Shown piece by piece: positions 6,495 to 33,660 of a stretch of DNA of 33,660 nucleotides. The first letter of the stretch is position 1. Each line of letters starts with the position of its first letter. The translations under genes and the position numbers were made by a program. The notes beneath the pieces were generated by a model that saw only the letters and a program-made list of their open reading frames with translations, had not been told where the DNA came from and did not search any database. Origin of the DNA: a virus (lineage: Duplodnaviria > Heunggongvirae > Uroviricota > Caudoviricetes); the IMG/VR virus record IMGVR_UViG_2913167280_000001. One strand, given 5' to 3'.

Positions 6495-7301
6495 TTATGT
6501 AGCCGAAATGGTTGTGGTGATGGTCCCCCGAAGCCGCTGCGCAGCTACCTCAAAATAATGATCACTGGTTTCTATACCAATAAATTTTCGCCCTGCTTTC
6601 AGTGCAGCCACACCCGTTGTCCCTGACCCCATAAAAGGATCAAGGACTGTTCCGCCACTATTCGCAGTTCTGACCAGTTCTGCCATAAGTTCTTCTGGTT
6701 TTCCGGTCGGGTGCATTTTCTTTGATGGGATAACCGGGAACGTCATGCAGCCGTCGAACGGTCCCGAAGGCGATTTATCTAAATGGCCTTTACTGCCCCA
6801 GACGATGTATTCGCACTGATGCCGGAAATACCCCGTATGGGGTGTTCGTGACCCCCTTCCTTTGTTCCACGCAATGATGCCGCGCCATGTGAAACCACTG
6901 GCCTGAAATGCATCAGTTAAAGCTGGCAGTTGTCGCCAGTCAGTAAATACCAGGGCATAACCGCCCGGCCTGACTGCGCGGTGTGCCTGTGCCATCCATA
7001 ATTGTGTCCAGTAAGCCCACGAACGGGCATCCATGTTTTCACCCGCAAACCCATCAAAGCGATGAAGGCTCTCGCCGTTCAGATATTTTGCGTGGCTGCC
7101 CTGGTTGGTGCGTCCGGCCTTGTGTGTCGCGCCCGAACTGTAAGGCGGGTCAGTGATTAAGGCATCAATACTTTCTGGCTCAATCAGCGGCAATATTTCC
7201 AGCGCATTCCCACGACAGAGCGTGGCATTGTCAGTCTGATAAACCTTAGTGTGTTCCGGTGTATGTGCTGGTTGGTGCTGGATTGTGATCCCCACGGTCA
7301 T
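6495..7301 (-). CDS. beta-class DNA methyltransferase (N6-adenine or N4-cytosine), 268 aa
   Basis: DPPY catalytic motif at residues 51-54 lies N-terminal to the AdoMet-binding motif DPFMGSGTT (beta-class order). ATG at 7299-7301 with a GAGGAG Shine-Dalgarno. Confidence 0.85.
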   Translation of the reverse strand: MTVGITIQHQPAHTPEHTKVYQTDNATLCRGNALEILPLIEPESIDALITDPPYSSGATHKAGRTNQGSHAKYLNGESLHRFDGFAGENMDARSWAYWTQLWMAQAHRAVRPGGYALVFTDWRQLPALTDAFQASGFTWRGIIAWNKGRGSRTPHTGYFRHQCEYIVWGSKGHLDKSPSGPFDGCMTFPVIPSKKMHPTGKPEELMAELVRTANSGGTVLDPFMGSGTTGVAALKAGRKFIGIETSDHYFEVAAQRLRGTITTTISAT

Positions 7302-7443
7302 AACTCCTCATGTGTGTGGGGTGCTCGATGGCTCTCGTTATCTGGTTAAGTGTTTTGCAGCGCGGACATTTTATTTCAATGTAGTGAAATGAGGCGCGGG
7401 CAAGTAGTTTGTTGCAATTTTTGCATCGTACATTTTGCGTCAT
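7246..7443 (-). CDS. com: Com-like zinc-finger protein (Mu com family), about 65 aa
   Basis: Sequence MTQNVRCKNCNKLL...IEIKCPRCK carries the Cys4 pattern remembered from Mu Com (RCKNCNKLL...IEIRCPRCK). It overlaps the first 56 nt of the downstream methyltransferase gene. ATG at 7441-7443; the track start at 7452 is GTG. Confidence 0.75.
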   Translation of the reverse strand: MTQNVRCKNCNKLLARASFHYIEIKCPRCKTLNQITRAIEHPTHMRSYDRGDHNPAPTSTYTGTH

Positions 7444-7488
7444 TTGCGGCACCTCTTGTGTGGTTACTGCTGCCGATATGATAACAAA

Positions 7489-7526
7489 TTGATCGCTTTT
7501 ATCGATCGGTTTTATATTATCGATCT
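7489..7526. promoter_or_regulatory. cluster of three GATC (Dam) sites upstream of com
   Basis: GATC at 7491, 7504 and 7522, within 35 bp and 48-82 bp upstream of the com ATG, in the divergent intergenic region. Confidence 0.6.
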
Positions 7527-7982
7527 GTGTTTTCTATTTTGTTCATGGGGCTGTTTGGCCTCACTTGTGCTGTAGTTTTAATGCGGAGGCTTCAAGTGCA
7601 ATATTTAAAGGGAACACCATTACATCAGTCCCGATTTGCAAGTGTCAGGATTACATGTCCTTCAGAGTTTTCCTCTTCAATAGAGGAGTATTTTCAAAAT
7701 AATGGATTTGATATAGGTCGTGTGACTTGCTTCTCTGCGAATGCACCCGATATGCTTAGTGTTATGTTCGAATTGCTCTCACGGGCGAAAAAATTTGCAG
7801 GGGTTATTATGGGGTTGTTAAACAGGAATGATGTTGAAGTTGAGCTACACCTTTGTACCAGAGATGATGAGCCTAAAACTGCAAAGCTCAAATTAAGAAA
7901 CCTCAAAGATGTTGATGCGTGTGAGCGCCTGATTGATAAACTGGCTACTGTGGTAATAACGTCAAAGAAAAATGAAGAATAA
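7527..7982 (+). CDS. hypothetical protein, AT-rich accessory gene (start uncertain)
   Basis: ORF clearly lower in GC than its flanks, divergent from com. The track start is GTG; a GTG at 7596 preceded by GGAGG is another candidate start. No recognisable motif. Confidence 0.5.
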   Translation: MFSILFMGLFGLTCAVVLMRRLQVQYLKGTPLHQSRFASVRITCPSEFSSSIEEYFQNNGFDIGRVTCFSANAPDMLSVMFELLSRAKKFAGVIMGLLNRNDVEVELHLCTRDDEPKTAKLKLRNLKDVDACERLIDKLATVVITSKKNEE

Positions 7983-8014
7983 TCGGTAAGCCAACCACCC
8001 TCTCTGGAAATAAA

Positions 8015-8043
8015 AAGCCCGCGACTAATCCTGCGGGCTTTTT
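8015..8043. terminator. bidirectional intrinsic terminator
   Basis: Perfect 8-bp stem AAGCCCGC / GCGGGCTT flanked by an A5 run upstream and a T5 run downstream, 30 nt after the stop of the 7527-7982 ORF. Confidence 0.75.
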
Positions 8044-8536
8044 GCATTCAGGTTTGCGAGATAGGGTGCCTTATCGACCTTAACCCTGGCAACCGATTGA
8101 CGGGGGATTGCTCCCCCGTCGCGGTTTCCTTACTGCTTACACTGTAAGAACGCCGCAAACTCCGCTCCCCAGAAGCTCATCCGTATCTCACACAGCGAAC
8201 CGTGTAGCATCCAGATGATGAGGATTGCCGTCACGCAGAACGTGATGGCTATAAGCGATTTTTGCGACATAGCACTTGCTCCTTTTTTTGCAAAGGCGCT
8301 AAGCTCTTGCCCGCTTATTGATTACGTTGTGAAACGCCCAGAGTTGAACATAAGGTTTAGTTGGGCCTTTTTACATCTGGCCTTCGTGTTTGCTGTCCAG
8401 CCATCAGTCGAAAGGCGTCCGCGTGAATTCTAGCCTGCTTTTTTTTCTTGCTTCAATACGTTGACTAATTTCAACACTCTGTTGTGCATATCCTGAACGC
8501 AGACATTATTCAGTCACGCATTTGATACATGCTTCC

Positions 8537-18755: not shown

Positions 18756-19098
18756 CAAGAGATACCGTAAAAGTCAGGGGTTCAAAAAAATCTTCGGTGT
18801 GGGCGCTAATCAGCAGGCGACCAGAAAGCGGGGTTTCTTCTGTCACACTGACCGTGCCGGGTGTGATGCGCTCATCATCTTCAATCAGCAGTGTCATCTG
18901 CATCATGATGTCGGCACGAAGTGTCGGGCTTTTTTCAGCCAGCAGGCGCGTTGCCAGTCCGCTCTCAATGATGGCGTGCTGGCAGTCCTGGGCAATACTT
19001 TCCCTGTTGTTGCATAACACCGGCTCACTGGCGCTGTTCAGCGTGAGATTGCGGCCGGTGATGAGCAAATCAATGTAAAGCGGTTTATCAGTATGCAT
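18748..19098 (-). CDS. putative baseplate wedge protein (gpW/gp25-like), about 116 aa
   Basis: Internal ATG at 19096-19098 of the 162-aa track ORF gives a 116-aa product immediately after the tape measure stop; size and position match P2 gpW. The longer ORF overlaps the tape measure gene by 149 nt. Confidence 0.45.
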   Translation of the reverse strand: MHTDKPLYIDLLITGRNLTLNSASEPVLCNNRESIAQDCQHAIIESGLATRLLAEKSPTLRADIMMQMTLLIEDDERITPGTVSVTEETPLSGRLLISAHTEDFFEPLTFTVSLDD

Positions 19099-21184
19099 GC
19101 AGCTCCATCCACTCGTTAAGACGGGCAGGGGATGGATCCTGCACATTGACGTTAACCACACGACGGGAGTTGTCGATGGTGGTCTGGTTTTCGCTGTTGT
19201 TCTGCATCTCTGCCGCAATGCCGCCCGGTCCCGCACTGATGGCTTTGCCGCCGGTTAATACGGAGCCTTCGCCACTTCCTGTGCTTTCCGGTGTGTCGAT
19301 ATTGACGCCGGGGATCATGTTGAGCTTGCCTACAATCCAGCCCCATGAATCACTGAAGGACTGTTTCACCAGTTCCCAGAGGTTACTGAAAATATTCAGG
19401 ATGCCGCCCGCGAGATCCTTCAGGGCATCCAGTGGTGAATGCGTGGAAAAATAGTTAACCAGTGCATTCCAGCCGTCCTGGATTGTGTTCCATGCATTGC
19501 CGAACCATGCCCCCATACTGCCGACCATTTCAGCCACCCACTGAAAGGCGGCGGTATCCATCAGCGCGGCTTTAATCTCATCCCAGCGGGTGATCAGGAA
19601 ATAAATGCCCACGCCCAGCGCAGCCAGTGCCAGGATGATTAATGTGATGGGGCTGAAAAGTAACTGTGTTGCAATTGCGGCTCCGCTGGTGACTGCGGTG
19701 TAGATTTTCATTGCTATGCCGGCGGCACCCAGCGCAACAGAATAAAGCCAGAGTCCGGCGCGCTGTAATTTCAGCAGCGCCAGCTGAATTTTTGCTTTGA
19801 CGTTGTATGTTCCCATAGCAATGGACATGGCCAGATACAGCGCCCTGACCGTTCGGGCAACTACAGTGAATGCCCACATGGTAGCCGTCAGTGTGCGTTT
19901 CAGCAGAATGAGAATCTTCAGCGGCGCAACAGCTGCCAGCCAGACCAGCCGCAGTCCTGTCCAGACAAACTTCGCCACACCCACCATAATGTTGACAACA
20001 GCACCCACTGCGGCAATGCCCAGCAGGGCGGCAGACAGTAAACCAATGGCCCGTGTGATATTGGGATACAGACGTAACCAGGCAACAAAGGATTTACCGC
20101 CTTCGTTGCTTTTCTGGATAAACGGGTACAGAACAGGCAGCAACTGCGTGCCAATTTCGATGCGAATGCCGTTAATAATTGCAGCGGCCTGTTCCCATGG
20201 ATCAGCCATGGCCTGTGCCATTTCGACAGCCTTATCCATACCTTTGATATTGCCCAGCGTGGCGATATTCTTTTCAAGTCCGCCAATGTCTGCATTGAGT
20301 AATTTAATCATGGCCACAGCTTCATCGGAGCCAAAGGCGCTTTTCAGCAAATCGGAATCAGCCACTTTTGACAGATCACCAAATTTACCCCTGATAAGTT
20401 TCATGATCTCGACAACACTTTTCATCGTGCCGTCTTTATTCACGAAATTAAGCCCCAGCTTTTTCTGGGCGCTGCCTACTGCGGCAAGAAATGCCTTGTA
20501 CTTTGTCCCGGCCTCGCTGCCACTCATGGTGGCCTGCAGCTGTCCCAGCACGGCGAACTGTTCAGCCGCATCAATACCGGCCGCTTTTGCACTGGCACCC
20601 AGCGTGGTGAACGCCGCTGACATGTTATCGCCGGTTGTTTTAAACATTTGCACGGCGGTGGCGGTTTGCCCGGCGACCTGCTCCACCCATTTGCTTTTTC
20701 CCATGGCATCAGCCTGGTCTTTAAAGATGCCGTACATGGTGCCCATGTAGGCGGTAATGGTCTGGCTGCTGGATTTGGTTGCTGCTGCCACCGTTGCTGA
20801 TGCGGTGGTGAAGCGGGACAGCTCATCGTCAGTTAATCCGGCAATGGCTGACTGGATGTCGTAAGAAGCACGCACAAAATCCTGCGCAGCCCCGCCGTAT
20901 TCCATAGTGAAATCAACGGCGGCGCGGCTGAGTTTACGCAATCCGGACTCTGCGACGCCCAGTGATTTCACCTCACCGAGCGCCCTGTCCATTTCAATGG
21001 CTGGCATCAGTGCCCCCTGAATGGCTGCACCCACTCCCCAGAGCGCAGCGCCTCCGGTAGCAATGTCCCGAAAGGCTCCCCGACTTGTTGCAGCAAATCC
21101 CTGAACCTGTCGCCCGGCCGCACGCAACGGCCTTGTCAGGCGGTCTGTCAGTTCAAGAAGTAATTCAAGGCGCTGTTGTGACAT
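19088..21184 (-). CDS. tail tape measure protein, 698 aa
   Basis: Long Ala/Gly-rich protein with central hydrophobic segments, directly downstream of the frameshifted chaperone; its ATG overlaps the stop of the chaperone -1 frame (TAATG). Confidence 0.85.
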   Translation of the reverse strand: MSQQRLELLLELTDRLTRPLRAAGRQVQGFAATSRGAFRDIATGGAALWGVGAAIQGALMPAIEMDRALGEVKSLGVAESGLRKLSRAAVDFTMEYGGAAQDFVRASYDIQSAIAGLTDDELSRFTTASATVAAATKSSSQTITAYMGTMYGIFKDQADAMGKSKWVEQVAGQTATAVQMFKTTGDNMSAAFTTLGASAKAAGIDAAEQFAVLGQLQATMSGSEAGTKYKAFLAAVGSAQKKLGLNFVNKDGTMKSVVEIMKLIRGKFGDLSKVADSDLLKSAFGSDEAVAMIKLLNADIGGLEKNIATLGNIKGMDKAVEMAQAMADPWEQAAAIINGIRIEIGTQLLPVLYPFIQKSNEGGKSFVAWLRLYPNITRAIGLLSAALLGIAAVGAVVNIMVGVAKFVWTGLRLVWLAAVAPLKILILLKRTLTATMWAFTVVARTVRALYLAMSIAMGTYNVKAKIQLALLKLQRAGLWLYSVALGAAGIAMKIYTAVTSGAAIATQLLFSPITLIILALAALGVGIYFLITRWDEIKAALMDTAAFQWVAEMVGSMGAWFGNAWNTIQDGWNALVNYFSTHSPLDALKDLAGGILNIFSNLWELVKQSFSDSWGWIVGKLNMIPGVNIDTPESTGSGEGSVLTGGKAISAGPGGIAAEMQNNSENQTTIDNSRRVVNVNVQDPSPARLNEWMELHAY

Positions 21185-21665
21185 TACGATCCCTTAAAAG
21201 CACGGATAATGCCGTTATTGACGGCGATGCTCATATTTTCCCAGTAGTGGTTATCCAGCCAGACGGCGGCAGCCAGTGACTGCGGCGAGTCATCCTCGCC
21301 GGGCAGCCAGTGGCGGCGCAGAATCAGCATCCGGGTAAGGTCATTGCGATCAATGGCCCCCAGATGGCTTTTTATTTTTTTACGGTGATTTCCACTTCCG
21401 GCACAAACTCGTTATTCACGGCTGTTGCCAGGCTGGCTGGCATTCCTGGTTTTTCCAGCAACTGGTTCAGCAGATCGCGGTGCTCTTTAATCACGATACG
21501 GCGCAGGTAGTTTTTCAGCGGCGCGATTTTGTTATCCGGCATGAAGTCGTTCTGCAGGTCGTTGTAGGCTTTTACGGTCGGGATAAACGTCAGTTCATGC
21601 TCGCCGACCTGTAAAGTGATGGTGTTCTCTGCGGTAGTCTGGGTGTTTTTATCGTTCATCATCAT
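21184..21665 (-). CDS. tail assembly chaperone; 97-aa product (21372-21665) plus a predicted -1 frameshift fusion of about 158 aa extending to 21184
   Basis: ORF between tube and tape measure genes with an AAGGA Shine-Dalgarno. Minus-strand slippery heptamer A AAA AAA (21375-21381) abuts the zero-frame stop; the -1 frame is open for 61 codons and ends at a TAA overlapping the tape measure ATG. Confidence 0.7.
21375..21381 (-). promoter_or_regulatory. programmed -1 ribosomal frameshift slippery site (A AAA AAA)
   Basis: Seven consecutive A on the coding strand, in X XXY YYZ register, immediately 5' of the chaperone stop codon. Confidence 0.65.
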
Positions 21666-21729
21666 TTCCTTTTAAAGTCAAGAATAAGAGGGCTTAATAA
21701 GCCTGCAGGAAGGCTTATTAAGCGTAAAA

Positions 21730-22071
21730 TCAGCGCACGCCGTCGTGCTCAAGGCTGAAATGATTGCCATCCGGGCGGTTTTTAAAACGACCGCCCCATG
21801 CGCCACCAAGGGATTCCCAGTACTCGCCCAGCTCGCGGTAGGCCTCTGTGCGGGTCTGATATTCACCGTTAATAAACAGATTAAAATCCACGGCCAGCCG
21901 CTGGCAGTGCAGGCTGTTGGCAATGCCGGATCCCTTTTGTGCGTTGAGTTTTGCCTGTTCTGGCGTGCGGTACGCCTCACCGAACGTCAGGCCATAACCG
22001 CGCTGATGGGCAAACTGGATGAGTTTTCCGATCATGACGGTAAATTGTTGTTGCTTATCGGAGAGTTTCAT
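21730..22071 (-). CDS. peptidase M15-type cell-wall hydrolase (endolysin-like), 113 aa
   Basis: Zinc-ligand pattern H-x6-D (SLHCQRLAVD) plus a C-terminal D-x2-H (DGNH), as in small phage L-Ala-D-Glu peptidases and VanY-like enzymes. Confidence 0.6.
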   Translation of the reverse strand: MKLSDKQQQFTVMIGKLIQFAHQRGYGLTFGEAYRTPEQAKLNAQKGSGIANSLHCQRLAVDFNLFINGEYQTRTEAYRELGEYWESLGGAWGGRFKNRPDGNHFSLEHDGVR

Positions 22072-22175
22072 TTTTGCTCCTTATGAGGTTGCTGAGGTTT
22101 GCGCAGCCAGTACCACAGTGCCCGGATAATTTTCCAGGCAATGGCAGCAGCTTTTTGTTCCCTGCGGGACAGCAT
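22068..22175 (-). CDS. small ORF, 35 aa (MLSRREQKAAAIAWKIIRALWYWLRKPQQPHKEQK)
   Basis: GAGGAG Shine-Dalgarno 8 nt upstream of the ATG; its TGA stop overlaps the ATG of the M15 peptidase gene (ATGA). Below the ORF-track length cutoff. Confidence 0.4.
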   Translation of the reverse strand: MLSRREQKAAAIAWKIIRALWYWLRKPQQPHKEQK

Positions 22176-22180
22176 TGCTG

Positions 22181-22477
22181 TTACTCCTCTTTGTTCTCTT
22201 TCTCGCCCAGCTTCCGGCGCATATGACGCAGGAAGATTTCAACAATCTGGTAACCGGCAACGCCCATTGCAGTGCCTGCGCCGGCAATGGCCAGTGGGTC
22301 AAGGTTCGGGTAACGAACCAGCAGGGCAGCGGCAGAAACACCCAGCGCGCTCCCCAGCAGGGTTCGACCCACAAACAACCGCAACGTAATCGGCTCTGCG
22401 CCAGCCAGCACCCGACTTGCGGCAGCGATTCCGCCCAGAATGCCCAGGGTGATAATGGTGCGCTCATGCTCCTGCAT
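22181..22477 (-). CDS. holin-like small membrane protein, 98 aa
   Basis: Three predicted hydrophobic segments and a highly charged C-terminal tail (RRKLGEKENKEE), a holin-like topology; sits upstream of the peptidase. Confidence 0.5.
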   Translation of the reverse strand: MQEHERTIITLGILGGIAAASRVLAGAEPITLRLFVGRTLLGSALGVSAAALLVRYPNLDPLAIAGAGTAMGVAGYQIVEIFLRHMRRKLGEKENKEE

Positions 22478-22480
22478 GGT

Positions 22481-22936
22481 TCACCCCATCAGTCCGCGCA
22501 CGTCGTTCTCTGAGAGAACGGGCACGCCGTTGATACGCACAAAGTCAGGGCTTGCCACCACGTACTTGATTTTGTGCGTGGTCAGATCTGCGCTTTCGGT
22601 GTCAATGCTTAACAGGCCGGAAAGCATCAGCTCACAACCGAAGGCTTCAACGCGGATTTCTTCAGTGCCCGTGTTGGCGTAAAACACAAAATCCATTGGC
22701 GGCAGATCGCGCCACGATCCCGCCTGAGCAGCCACTTCCCCGAGCTGGTTAAAGCTGCGGGTACTCATTTCGATTTCACCTTCGGCACTGACAGGTCCAC
22801 GCAGTTTACCGTCAGGGATGCCACGGGTTTTGGCAACGGCGCTTTCATCGCTGATGTCCAGTGAGATGCTTTTCACATGGATATCCGTTCCACCGATAAA
22901 GGTGTCAAACGCCATGCCGTTAATGCGGGTCGTCAT
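22481..22936 (-). CDS. putative tail tube protein, 151 aa
   Basis: Follows the sheath-sized gene with an ATGA overlap; size fits contractile-tail tube proteins. Called by synteny. Confidence 0.55.
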   Translation of the reverse strand: MTTRINGMAFDTFIGGTDIHVKSISLDISDESAVAKTRGIPDGKLRGPVSAEGEIEMSTRSFNQLGEVAAQAGSWRDLPPMDFVFYANTGTEEIRVEAFGCELMLSGLLSIDTESADLTTHKIKYVVASPDFVRINGVPVLSENDVRGLMG

Positions 22937-24081
22937 GCCTTTTCCTCCAGAGATTTATCCAGCTGAATGCCCACTTTGATGGTTTTAGGGCAGGCGTAAG
23001 GGCGGACAACAATGCTGATGCTGACCGTCTTTTCGTCCTGCCAGGTGATAACCACGTCGCCTTTTTTTGGGGATTTCACTTCGCCCGGAAACGTGATGCC
23101 GTTAATTTGCATGGATTTCGCCATGGCACGCAGTGGGCGGGCAAACAGCGTTTCATGTGCGGCAATGCTGCCCGGCGTGCTGTTCAGCGAGCGGTCGGCA
23201 ATCTTGGGGATGGCCATCAGCCGCACGCGGCGCGCCACCTTATCAGCAATGCGGACATGCTCAATGACGTTGTAGTCCCCGCCTTCCACTTCAAGTGTTA
23301 CACCGTCAGCCCAGTAAAGGCCGTCATAGTCGGCATACCACATGGGCACGCTGTAGCGGGCGGTTGCCAGTGCCTGCAGAGTGTCGAGATCAATTGCCTG
23401 CCCTGCGCTGTCTTTCGGGCGTTCTGTGGTTTTCAGTGCGGACAGGGGCCCGGTTGCCACACGTGCCGGACTGTCAGCAATGGTGACGGTGCTGTTACAC
23501 AGGCGACCAGCAAGAACGCCCGGTTCAAATCCAAAAATCTCCGGAACCAGCATGACCTGCGGAGCTGCAATGCCTTTCTGTAGCGCGGTCAGTTCGGCAA
23601 CGTATTCCGCCCAGGTTTTACTGTTGTCGTTGGCGGCGATGGTCAGGATGAACCAGATGCGGCGCTGATATTTATTGATGATGGTCTGACGTAACGCCTG
23701 TATGGCGTTGATGTCATCCTTCGTGCTGACCGGTTCGGTGATCACCACGCCTTCAACTGAAACAGTTTCCTGAGCCGCCAGTATGGCGTTCTGCCATGCC
23801 TGGCAGGCTGGCGTTGCTTCTTTGCCTTTGCCGGCTTCCGGCAGAACGGCAACATAGAAAAAGGCATTCTGTCCGGCATTGGTCAGCGCAGACTGAAGGA
23901 AATTCTTCAGCGGATTGGCGTTTGTTCCCAGCAGTTCATCCAGATCGCTGTTGGCATTAACCGGCAGAACCTTACCTTTGTTGTTTTGTGCATTGCCCAC
24001 AAACAGCAGCGTATTTTCCACGCCGTCCGGCGAGCTACTGAACGTGTTGTACTGTTCAATCGTGACAGATGGCCATGTCAT
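22933..24081 (-). CDS. putative tail sheath protein, about 382 aa
   Basis: Largest gene before the tube gene; start set at the ATG at 24079-24081 (AGGAG Shine-Dalgarno 7 nt upstream) rather than the track start at 24213. Not P2 FI-like by eye. Confidence 0.55.
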   Translation of the reverse strand: MTWPSVTIEQYNTFSSSPDGVENTLLFVGNAQNNKGKVLPVNANSDLDELLGTNANPLKNFLQSALTNAGQNAFFYVAVLPEAGKGKEATPACQAWQNAILAAQETVSVEGVVITEPVSTKDDINAIQALRQTIINKYQRRIWFILTIAANDNSKTWAEYVAELTALQKGIAAPQVMLVPEIFGFEPGVLAGRLCNSTVTIADSPARVATGPLSALKTTERPKDSAGQAIDLDTLQALATARYSVPMWYADYDGLYWADGVTLEVEGGDYNVIEHVRIADKVARRVRLMAIPKIADRSLNSTPGSIAAHETLFARPLRAMAKSMQINGITFPGEVKSPKKGDVVITWQDEKTVSISIVVRPYACPKTIKVGIQLDKSLEEKA

Positions 24082-31885: not shown

Positions 31886-31935
31886 AACCCGGAACGGGCG
31901 CACAAAGAATTTGCGCACCCGTTCCGGGTTTTCTT
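31886..31935 (+). terminator. long hairpin with T run after the ogr-like gene
   Basis: About 21-bp stem with two mismatches (AACCCGGAACGGGCGCACAAA / TTTGCGCACCCGTTCCGGGTT) followed by TTTTCTT; lies between the convergent ogr-like and Rrf2 genes. Confidence 0.75.
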
Positions 31936-32293
31936 ATTTAATGGCAGACAACTGATAATTTGTGTCTTCCTGCAGGCTGGTTAAAGAAATATTATCCAGT
32001 GCAGCCAGAATAACGTGCTGTGTATATAATCCGGAACATTTCATTGCCCGGACAATATCACCAACACTGTAATTTTCTTTTGTTGGGATATATCCACCAC
32101 CCGGGCCGCGTGTGGCTTTTACCAGGCTACTTTCCCGTAAATATCTGAATATTTGCTCCAGATATGACAGTGAAACGGTTTCTTTGCTTAATTGCCGGAG
32201 CGAGATTGGCTTTCCGGTGTACTGTTTCACAAATTTAATCATTACCATAACTGCAACTGATGCACGCTGGCTTCCGGAATTATCTTTCATCAT
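31934..32293 (-). CDS. Rrf2-family transcriptional regulator, about 119 aa
   Basis: Helix-turn-helix region with SLSYLEQIFRYLRESSLVKATRGPGGGY, matching the Rrf2/IscR signature; only one Cys after the HTH, so probably not an Fe-S type. Start set at the ATG at 32291-32293. Confidence 0.75.
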   Translation of the reverse strand: MMKDNSGSQRASVAVMVMIKFVKQYTGKPISLRQLSKETVSLSYLEQIFRYLRESSLVKATRGPGGGYIPTKENYSVGDIVRAMKCSGLYTQHVILAALDNISLTSLQEDTNYQLSAIK

Positions 32294-32304
32294 GATTACT
32301 TCCA

Positions 32305-32592
32305 TTAATGGCATAAATTGATGGAGCGGGTCAGTGAATAAAGAGGCAATACATTCCATCCCTTAGAGCGCCAGCTGTCTGCAACATCTTTACTTCTTGT
32401 TATCGCCGGCATTCCAATAGGATTATTTGCGTGCATCCATGCCACTGGCTCTGCTTCCAGTGATGCAAGTGCGATTTCCAGTGCGATTAACATATTGTGA
32501 TCGTCTTCATCAAGACCGAACGGGATGTCTTCGCGCCACGATTTAAACTCTGTGATTTTACGTTGTAACCATTCTTTGGTAATGGTGGACAT
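32305..32592 (-). CDS. hypothetical protein, about 95 aa
   Basis: ATG at 32590-32592 with an AGGAG Shine-Dalgarno 5 nt upstream; between the parR-like and Rrf2 genes on the same strand. No recognisable motif. Confidence 0.5.
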   Translation of the reverse strand: MSTITKEWLQRKITEFKSWREDIPFGLDEDDHNMLIALEIALASLEAEPVAWMHANNPIGMPAITRSKDVADSWRSKGWNVLPLYSLTRSINLCH

Positions 32593-32606
32593 AGTTACTC
32601 CTGTTT

Positions 32607-32921
32607 TCACTTCGGAAAAAACGCCTGAATATTCTTCTTCACCTGCTGCATATGGGGGGCGCTGTCTGCTGCTGGTTGCGCCGGTTTTTCAGGCTGTACT
32701 GGTAGCGGTGGCATCCTTATTTCGTCTTCTGACCATTCTGCCAGCGAATACGCCAACGCGGGGATGCGTTTTATAAGAGCCAGTCCGGCCAGAAAAGCCG
32801 CGCGTTGTGCGCGGCTGCGTTCGGAGGCTGGCAGGCTGTCGAGGTAACTGCACGCCTCCCGTTCGCTCTTGACGACGGCGGGCTTCAGATAGAAACTTAT
32901 CCGTCTGGTTGGTGTCGTCAT
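32607..32921 (-). CDS. parR: ParR-like partition adaptor protein, about 104 aa
   Basis: N-terminal YLDSLPASERSRAQRAAFLAGLAL resembles plasmid R1 ParR (from memory); AAGGAG Shine-Dalgarno 7 nt before the ATG at 32921, embedded in the parM 3' end. Confidence 0.65.
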   Translation of the reverse strand: MTTPTRRISFYLKPAVVKSEREACSYLDSLPASERSRAQRAAFLAGLALIKRIPALAYSLAEWSEDEIRMPPLPVQPEKPAQPAADSAPHMQQVKKNIQAFFPK

Positions 32922-32925
32922 TGAT

Positions 32926-33660
32926 TTACTCCTTGTCCATTGCGTACAGCCCATTAACCAGAGCAAACTGTGGCACCCCGTCCGCGATGAAAGTCGCATT
33001 AACTCCGCAGGCTTCGCGGATAGCGGGTGCCACAATCTCCGCTCCTCCACCTACAACCATCACCCGCCCGTAACCCGAAAAACCCGCCAGCGCGCGGATC
33101 ACGCGTTGTTTCAGTGTTTCCTCCTTTTCACGAATAACTGCCATCAGGCTGGCGTAATGCGCGTCATTGTGGATGTGCTGGCGCAACCAGGCTTCATCGT
33201 GGCGATGTTCGATAATGGTATTGGCGATGTGGTGACTGGTGCGCATACCGTTGGTGGCCATCACCGACAGCACGGCGTCGGCCATCAGAGAAACGCCTAC
33301 GTGTGGATCGCAAAACACCTGGCTGATACCTGCCAGTTGCCCCTGAACCTTTGCCACATCCAGCGTGGTTCCGCCCAAATCCACAATCAGCAGGGATTCA
33401 AACGGACTCATGTCAGCCAGTGCTTTAAAGCCAGCCGGAATGGATTCAGGCATAACCCGCACGTTACGGATAGTGAATGCCTCGCCGTTCTGGTACTCCA
33501 CCTGGCGCATAACGTTCGCTTTTTTGCGGTTGATGTTGGCCATGTCCGGCTGTGCGTTTGTGTCGAAATACTCGCTCAGTGGCAGGGTGACAACCACATC
33601 CACCTCCTGTGGCGTGATGCCTGATTTGACCAGCGCATGATGAATGGCAATGACATTCAC
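32926..33660 (-). CDS. parM: ParM/StbA-like actin-type segregation ATPase, C-terminal about 244 aa (N-terminus beyond the window edge)
   Basis: Actin-fold motifs LLIVDLGGTTLD and MVVGGGAEI, plus VMPESIPAGF, match remembered ParM of plasmid R1. The ORF is open to the window edge. Confidence 0.75.
   Translation of the reverse strand: MNVIAIHHALVKSGITPQEVDVVVTLPLSEYFDTNAQPDMANINRKKANVMRQVEYQNGEAFTIRNVRVMPESIPAGFKALADMSPFESLLIVDLGGTTLDVAKVQGQLAGISQVFCDPHVGVSLMADAVLSVMATNGMRTSHHIANTIIEHRHDEAWLRQHIHNDAHYASLMAVIREKEETLKQRVIRALAGFSGYGRVMVVGGGAEIVAPAIREACGVNATFIADGVPQFALVNGLYAMDKE

Follow-up and report, generated by a model that had tools for sequence, protein, structure and literature searches.

Phages of the HP1-like branch of Peduoviridae carry their lysis genes after the tail tube gene and before the gene for the tail chaperone or tape measure protein, which was the case in all the records of this branch that we examined (HP1, K139, phiO18P, phi3, ESSI2_ev015, and YenM_324). 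Holin, endolysin, and Rz-like spanin are annotated at this position in most of these six records, with Pseudomonas phi3 showing an endolysin and a spanin and no annotated holin; in ESSI2_ev015 and YenM_324, the order is tube, holin, endolysin, i-spanin, o-spanin, chaperone, and tape measure. Here, we describe the lysis cassette in an Escherichia prophage of the same branch, P2-like and temperate, found in a 33,660-nucleotide (nt) stretch of viral DNA (IMG/VR record IMGVR_UViG_2913167280_000001; hereafter the window, with positions counted from its first letter). The cassette lacks spanin genes and contains an unannotated 35-codon open reading frame (ORF) between the holin and endolysin genes, the product of which may act at the outer membrane in their place.

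The holin-endolysin-spanin logic is also followed in phage P2 by Y-K-lysA-lysB-lysC, with LysB and LysC as spanins, and the window prophage shares its P2-like head and tail genes with P2. The lysis region of P2, unlike that of the window, is located between the head-completion and tail-completion genes and not after the tube.

Phages without a recognisable spanin account for about 13–15% of the phages of Gram-negative hosts (10.1101/515445; PMC12819732). In the literature searched, gp28 of phage phiKT was the only characterised non-spanin outer-membrane disruptor to turn up; it is a disruptin, an amphipathic protein of 56 amino acids (aa) with a net charge of +7, which was found by experiment to complement lambda Rz/Rz1 (Holt et al., bioRxiv 10.1101/515445). 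In a 2026 paper, the presence of disruptins in other phages without spanins is still treated as open (PMC12819732).

Spanin Loss and a Small Open Reading Frame in the Lysis Cassette

The cassette consists of the following features:
22181..22477, minus strand: holin, 98 aa (PF04550, E 5.5e-28; PHROG 175)
22072-22180, minus strand: holin-endolysin gap of 109 nt, containing the small ORF
22068..22175, minus strand: unannotated 35-codon ORF with the product MLSRREQKAAAIAWKIIRALWYWLRKPQQPHKEQK, a cationic amphipathic peptide and candidate outer-membrane disruptor
21730..22071, minus strand: endolysin, 113 aa, Peptidase_M15_4 (PF13539, E 3.2e-11; endolysin PHROGs)
21666-21729, minus strand: endolysin-chaperone gap of 64 nt, containing a hairpin at 21692..21723

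ESSI-2-like Peduoviridae (Cronobacter ESSI-2, Escherichia ESSI2_ev015/Quadragintavirus, Salmonella SI7/SW3, and Yersinia vB_YenM_324) hold their cassette at the same position, with a holin of the same PF04550 family and a 113-aa M15 endolysin that is 75–80% identical to that of the window. In most of these loci, the holin gene overlaps the endolysin start by 4–14 nt (gap of -14 to 0 nt), whereas the window has the 109-nt gap with the 35-codon ORF. In addition, the genes for the i-spanin, which has an N-terminal transmembrane segment, and for the o-spanin, a lipoprotein, occupy about 480 nt after the endolysin in the ESSI-2-like phages, while the window has only the 64 nt with the hairpin. The cassettes of HP1 (hol-lys-orf25), K139, phiO18P, and phi3 share the position with that of the window and differ in their components. 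The HP1 holin belongs to PF16080, a family other than PF04550; the endolysins, at 153–195 aa, are larger and gave no match to the M15 query (in K139 and phi3, they carry a lysozyme-like annotation); and spanins are present, unlike in the window cassette.

To compare the two types, 117 distinct tube-to-chaperone regions were collected from two viral-contig scans (one based on the endolysin and one on a holin alignment) and from annotated genomes. The window clade was defined by a tube identity of at least 80% and comprised 25 regions, the remaining 92 being other HP1-like regions. The two sets were characterised as follows:
Holin-endolysin gap: 102–118 nt in the window clade (n = 25), -14 to 0 nt in the others (n = 92)
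Small ORF: 25/25 in the window clade, 0/92 in the others
Endolysin-chaperone interval: 64–86 nt in the window clade, 475–769 nt in the others
Spanin homologues: 0/25 in the window clade, 92/92 in the others (both i-spanin and o-spanin)

The small ORF and the spanin genes were complementary without exception across these 117 regions. In the loci compared, the endolysins of the small-ORF and the spanin-bearing relatives were 63–83% identical, and the holins were of the same family. The window clade has lost the Rz/Rz1 genes that are found after the endolysin gene in all its relatives, and carries a translatable 35-codon gene instead.

The first-pass annotation of the window, made from the sequence alone, had remarked that no spanin genes were evident nearby, and this loss is the one real departure from the HP1-like relatives that it noticed. 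Only 64 nt lie between the endolysin stop and the chaperone start, and no spanin gene was found anywhere in the prophage. A tblastn search with the ESSI-2 and YenM spanins gave no match in the window-clade loci, and ten hypothetical proteins of the prophage gave no match to any spanin PHROG. A six-frame lipobox scan of the whole prophage returned no credible lipoprotein ORF, only antisense or nested spurious ones; as a positive control, the same scan recovered the o-spanin in 8/8 control relatives. An alternative-frame lipobox-like ORF (MAIISALSTTAC...) at the 3' end of the endolysin gene (21730-21800, minus strand) was rejected as an o-spanin, with a post-Cys part of 5–18 aa that is unconserved and no i-spanin partner. 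This ORF stems from the conserved DGNHFSLEH codons of the endolysin, mimics a lipoprotein signal, and can trip o-spanin finders.

Peptide Properties and Comparison with the phiKT Disruptin

The small ORF encodes a Trp-rich peptide of 35 aa with a net charge of +7 and a hydrophobic moment of 0.62. The net charge was +7 in all three lineages of the clade for which it was computed (+9 if the ORF of locus L033 starts at GTG), and the amphipathic moment ranged from 0.61 to 0.78 across the lineages computed, above about 96% or more of shuffled sequences. AlphaFold2 predicted a single helix covering residues 4–25 (mean predicted local distance difference test score of 74.5), and no hydrophobic or transmembrane segment was seen in the hydropathy profile. 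The peptide thus has the traits of a disruptin, i.e., a length below 80 aa, a strongly cationic character, a predicted amphipathic helix, and no signal or transmembrane segment, and the window likewise fits the occurrence of disruptins in the lysis cassette of a phage without a spanin or lipoprotein gene.

Like the window prophage, phiKT has a genome without spanins, and its gp27-gp28-gp29 encode endolysin, disruptin, and holin, which places a gene for a cationic peptide between an endolysin gene and a PF04550 holin gene, as in the window. The hydrophobic moments of gp28 and the window peptide are 0.68 and 0.62, respectively, and both carry a charge of +7. The two phages also differ, phiKT being a podophage of virulent lifestyle whose endolysin is of the lysozyme type and whose gene order is opposite to that of the window cassette; moreover, the function of gp28 is experimental in phiKT, whereas that of the window peptide is inferred. 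We also observed that the phiKT RefSeq record (L094, 36780-37109) labels gp28 as a "hypothetical OmpW family transmembrane protein", and that the neighbouring endolysin, annotated as 109 aa, matches the phage lysozyme profile in its C-terminal part only.

By analogy with gp28, we tentatively propose that the small peptide replaces the spanins at the outer membrane in a disruptin-like manner. No alignment between the peptide and gp28 was obtained by BLASTP at E <= 100; lacking sequence similarity, it would be an analogue of gp28 from outside the gp28 family. It is possible, though short of an even chance in our judgement, that the peptide represents a second disruptin family, unrelated in sequence to the first, which replaces Rz/Rz1 in a P2-like temperate coliphage lineage. 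In the proposed lysis pathway, late transcription would yield the holin, as is known for the family, and the holin would accumulate in the inner membrane; on its triggering, the soluble endolysin would gain access to the peptidoglycan and cleave it, probably as an L-Ala-D-Glu endopeptidase. The 35-residue peptide would then take on the task of disrupting the outer membrane, as gp28 does in phiKT, which is the weakest step of the scheme and is proposed by analogy.

Several observations weigh against this scheme. The peptide has no detectable similarity to gp28 and is shorter (35 vs. 56 aa), and its variants include two premature stops (Q28*, which leaves a 27-aa form, and Q34*), which spare the predicted helix, and two frameshifted forms. 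The peptide is under no more than modest purifying selection, and its C-terminal part is constrained in places by the Shine-Dalgarno sequence of the endolysin and not by peptide function. The matches of the endolysin to solved peptidases are weak (E 0.003). Because the spanin-less clade is monophyletic, the perfect complementarity of small ORF and spanins represents a single evolutionary swap and not a repeated one. Finally, with 47% identity, the clade holin is also distinct from that of the ESSI-2 type, and the peptide could instead be its partner.

Such a partner might be a regulator of the holin, i.e., an antiholin, a lysis-timing factor, or a helper similar to Lcc6 of LambdaSo, with the outer-membrane step being absent or unrecognised. 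The ORF directly follows the holin gene, with its Shine-Dalgarno sequence located within the last codons of the latter, and the clade holin is a distinct subtype that may have co-evolved with the peptide. A dual-start motif is missing from the holin sequence, and small extra lysis factors at the holin level are known (Lcc6). However, relatives of the ESSI-2 type do without a gene of this kind, and the peptide was gained exactly where the spanins were lost. The peptide also has no transmembrane segment, while its charge, amphipathicity, and Trp content fit membrane-surface-active cationic peptides. Taken together, a regulatory role is considered unlikely.

Coding Potential of the Small Open Reading Frame

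The 35-codon ORF was overlooked in the first-pass annotation. It is preceded by a GAGGAG Shine-Dalgarno sequence 8 nt upstream of the ATG, and it ends in a stop codon that shares the sequence ATGA with the start codon of the endolysin. The ORF occurs in four divergent lineages (the window type, E. coli E7-1N7 (L012), L033, and the metagenome contig L175), in all of which it has 35–41 codons, a Shine-Dalgarno sequence at the right distance, and an end at or overlapping the endolysin start; the ORF is very probably translated. Between lineages, its DNA is nearly unalignable, and the peptides are mostly 20–33% identical (54% for the closest two), compared with 81–95% for the endolysins. Most of the length variants seen in public assemblies keep the reading frame (-1, +3, and -3 aa). 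Of the changes among window-type variants, 12 are synonymous and 14, mostly conservative, are non-synonymous, while 22% synonymous changes are expected (p = 0.005). Selection acts on the physicochemical character of the peptide and not on its exact sequence.

There was no match for the small peptide in Pfam, and when 1.84 billion representative proteins were searched with a profile, the peptide family was found only in the prophage clade of the window. A derivation of the peptide from the holin or spanin sequences of ESSI-2-type phages, or from other sequences of the collected loci, was also considered and rejected, with only random 6-residue matches being found. A 128-aa ORF at 22081-22467 that overlaps the holin gene was rejected as well; it only represents the endolysin frame staying open further upstream, and a stop codon in the window separates it from the endolysin start.

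The ORF could also be functionless as a peptide and serve as a translated spacer coupling holin and endolysin, or be a non-coding gap or a non-functional remnant, in which case the spanin-less clade would lyse its host less efficiently. This would agree with a peptide that diverges far faster than its neighbours, with the truncated and frameshifted variants, with the endolysin Shine-Dalgarno sequence AAGGAG carried by the 3' end of the ORF, and with the ORF being left unannotated by the Prokaryotic Genome Annotation Pipeline (PGAP) in most genomes. On the other side, the 35–41-codon ORF, its own Shine-Dalgarno sequence, the charge of +7, and the amphipathic helix persist in the four lineages although the DNA can hardly be aligned, the indels are mostly in-frame, and synonymous changes exceed the expectation. 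In ESSI-2-type phages, holin and endolysin are coupled through the direct overlap of their genes, which makes a spacer unnecessary, and the distribution of the prophage (see below) suggests an active phage. We therefore regard a functionless ORF as quite improbable.

Identity and Position of the Lysis Cassette

The product of 22181-22477 matches PF04550 Phage_holin_3_2 (E 5.5e-28, 97.7 bits with a cut-off of 25) over profile positions 1–85 of 86, as well as PHROG 175 "holin" (E 1.2e-32). It is 47% identical to the holin of ESSI2_ev015 and 28% identical to gp29, the holin of phiKT, which is also a PF04550 member (E 1e-11); a PSP3-type holin was among its matches too. In the first-pass annotation, this product was described as a holin-like membrane protein with three segments and a charged C-terminus. 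The holin family was confirmed; the C-terminal tail reads LRHMRRKLGEKENKEE, and the last 16 residues include 6 basic and 4 acidic ones. The hydropathy profile contains two clear hydrophobic segments, centred near residues 13–20 and 46–48, while the third, a Gly/Ala-rich segment at about residues 60–82, fell below the hydropathy threshold used and is inferred from the sequence.

The product of 21730-22071 had been proposed to be a zinc-peptidase-like hydrolase with H-x6-D and D-x2-H motifs, which is consistent with its match to PF13539 Peptidase_M15_4 (E 3.2e-11, 44.1 bits with a cut-off of 25) and to the endolysin PHROGs 1768, 465, and 2649. Both motifs were found, H55-x6-D62 in SLHCQRLAVD and D101-x2-H104 in DGNHF, and H55, D62, D101, H104, and H109 are invariant across 11 homologues. 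A search of the Protein Data Bank (PDB) with the single sequence gave no match. A profile built from the homologues gave weak matches to solved L-Ala-D-Glu peptidases (2VO9, E 0.003; 8Q2G, E 0.008; 2MXZ, E 0.08), with alignments spanning the metal-ligand motifs, which pair with SNHNYGVAVD and DYPHF of Ply500 (2VO9). The enzyme is probably a LAS-type zinc peptidase of the L-alanyl-D-glutamate endopeptidase type. The hydropathy profile revealed no hydrophobic, signal, or signal-arrest-release segment, so the endolysin should be soluble and dependent on the holin.

The genes surrounding the cassette are as follows:
22933..24081, minus strand: tail sheath gene, DUF2586 family (PF10758, E 1.4e-127; PHROG 907 "tail sheath"), with the likely start at 24081
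22481..22936, minus strand: tail tube gene, HP1 Orf24 family (PF10772, E 1.1e-50; PHROG 1182)
21372..21665, minus strand: tail assembly chaperone gene (PF10963, E 1.6e-26)
21184..21330, minus strand: DUF6890 ORF (PF21830, E 3.5e-24), in frame -1 relative to the chaperone
19088..21184, minus strand: tail tape measure protein gene (PF10145; PHROG 28)

From the tail sheath to the tape measure, all late genes are encoded by the minus strand, and the tail sheath gene is 1149 nt long in the PGAP annotation of equivalent prophages. The placement of the holin and peptidase genes between tube and chaperone was thus correctly recognised at the outset, with PF10772 upstream and PF10963 downstream. The tube protein family is restricted to HP1-like Peduoviridae; the tube protein of the window is 42–56% identical to most of its matches, including those of HP1, K139, phiO18P, and ESSI-2, with the weakest full-length match at 39%.

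The position was initially taken to be unusual for lysis genes, which turned out to be wrong, as it is the standard one in the HP1-like Peduoviridae records examined and was also seen in the 117 distinct related regions. The alternative that the pair forms a lysis cassette was borne out. The closest phage homologues of the peptidase (75–80% identity) come from Salmonella SI7/SW3, the ESSI-2 group, and YenM_324 and are annotated as endolysins; the phages in question are syntenic, with the endolysin gene adjoining the holin gene and the genes for an Rz-like i-spanin and an o-spanin coming after. Since the relatives hold their lysis genes at the same spot, the pair in the window is the lysis cassette of the prophage in its canonical position. 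No second lysis cassette was present in the PGAP annotation of two equivalent prophages, and none is annotated elsewhere in the equivalent whole prophage L004. We are highly confident in the assignment of the lysis cassette together with its absence of spanins. In position and in holin and endolysin families, the cassette fits the known HP1-like/ESSI-2-like type, but it fails on the spanins. The tail-operon lysis cassette as first noticed is ordinary for HP1-like P2-family phages, and the interest lies in the exchange of spanins for a peptide.

The first-pass annotation had also suggested that the peptidase could be a virion-associated cell-wall hydrolase used for infection, with the membrane protein as its partner, in line with the location of both genes inside the tail gene block. 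This is very improbable, as all relatives hold holin, endolysin, and spanins at the same position, the peptidase is a free 113-aa enzyme orthologous to annotated endolysins rather than part of a tail protein, its partner is a genuine holin family member, and the prophage has no other lysis cassette. Virion-associated hydrolases are carried in particles, most often as domains of tail or tape measure proteins. Some type 10 secretion modules lack spanins, and those of Salmonella comprise only a holin plus a peptidoglycan hydrolase (PMC13284979), but a domesticated module for non-lytic protein export is scarcely credible for genes that sit within a late operon, in a complete prophage with head, tail, replication, and integrase genes, and are adjoined by no cargo gene.

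The endolysin slot was also found to vary among the ESSI-2-like viral contigs. In L145, L148, L151-L154, and L156, holin, spanins, and chaperone are kept with no M15 match between them, and the distance from holin to chaperone is about 904 nt compared with about 815 nt, which suggests that a different type of endolysin was swapped into the same slot.

Hairpin and Probable Frameshift Site Downstream of the Endolysin

The 64-nt gap between endolysin and chaperone contains a perfect 13-bp hairpin (21692-21723, minus strand), which is a terminator-like match, has a folding energy of -21 kcal/mol (z -3.9), and is followed by a conserved CCCTCTTATTCTTGAC motif. The hairpin is present in all four lineages of the clade, with 98% of cells paired and compensatory changes at 4/13 pairs, and is located exactly where the relatives have Rz/Rz1. 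Within the late operon, its role may be that of a terminator or of an RNA-stability element.

The chaperone gene ends in GTA AAA AAA TAA, containing a slippery run of seven A's (21375-21381, minus strand). Programmed -1 frameshift extensions of tail chaperones are represented by G/GT of lambda and E/E+E' of P2. The DUF6890 ORF, which PGAP annotates as a separate gene, is probably such an extension of the tail chaperone, judging from its frame and the slippery run.

Genomic Context and Distribution of the Prophage

Positions 1 to about 6400 of the window contain the host genes clpB, yfiH, rluD, bamD, and raiA, with about 96% identity to E. coli, and the part beyond about 6400 comprises most of a P2-like prophage. 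The late region of the window is present at 95–100% identity in 42/5426 complete E. coli genomes, and these copies occupy at least two integration sites and have different integrases; an intact prophage with this distribution suggests an active phage. E. coli STEC313 is one of the carriers. A region of Escherichia albertii NBRC 107761, 98.3% identical to the window, was the sole locus from the contig scan. No isolated phage of the window clade was found in the phage collection, where the best tube identity was 56%, and megablast of the region against isolated phages gave just two matches, both short and partial, in phages of Aeromonas and Vibrio. The clade is known only from prophages.

Several other genes of the prophage were noted. 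A Hok/Gef-type toxin ORF (8130-8270) lies at the tail-fibre end of the prophage (window 6495-8270, minus strand), and a Com-like zinc-finger ORF (7246-7452) overlaps the start of a DNA methyltransferase gene (6495-7301), which is reminiscent of Mu com/mom. The prophage also carries ParM and a plasmid partition/stability gene (window about 31934-33660, minus strand; L004 11804-13755), with an Rrf2-type regulator nearby, all of which adjoin the gpA-type replication endonuclease gene. The ParM, partition, and Rrf2 genes are unusual cargo for an integrated P2-like phage.

Implications for Lysis of Gram-Negative Hosts

If the small peptide does replace the spanins, outer-membrane disruption by cationic antimicrobial-like peptides would be a recurring solution, exchangeable with spanins in syntenic cassettes, and not a peculiarity of phiKT. 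The short Trp-rich cationic peptide is also a candidate antimicrobial. The clade offers a natural comparison within E. coli, as close relatives share the endolysin and the holin family and carry either spanins or the small peptide and never both, which makes the question directly testable by the existing lambda Rz/Rz1 complementation assays.

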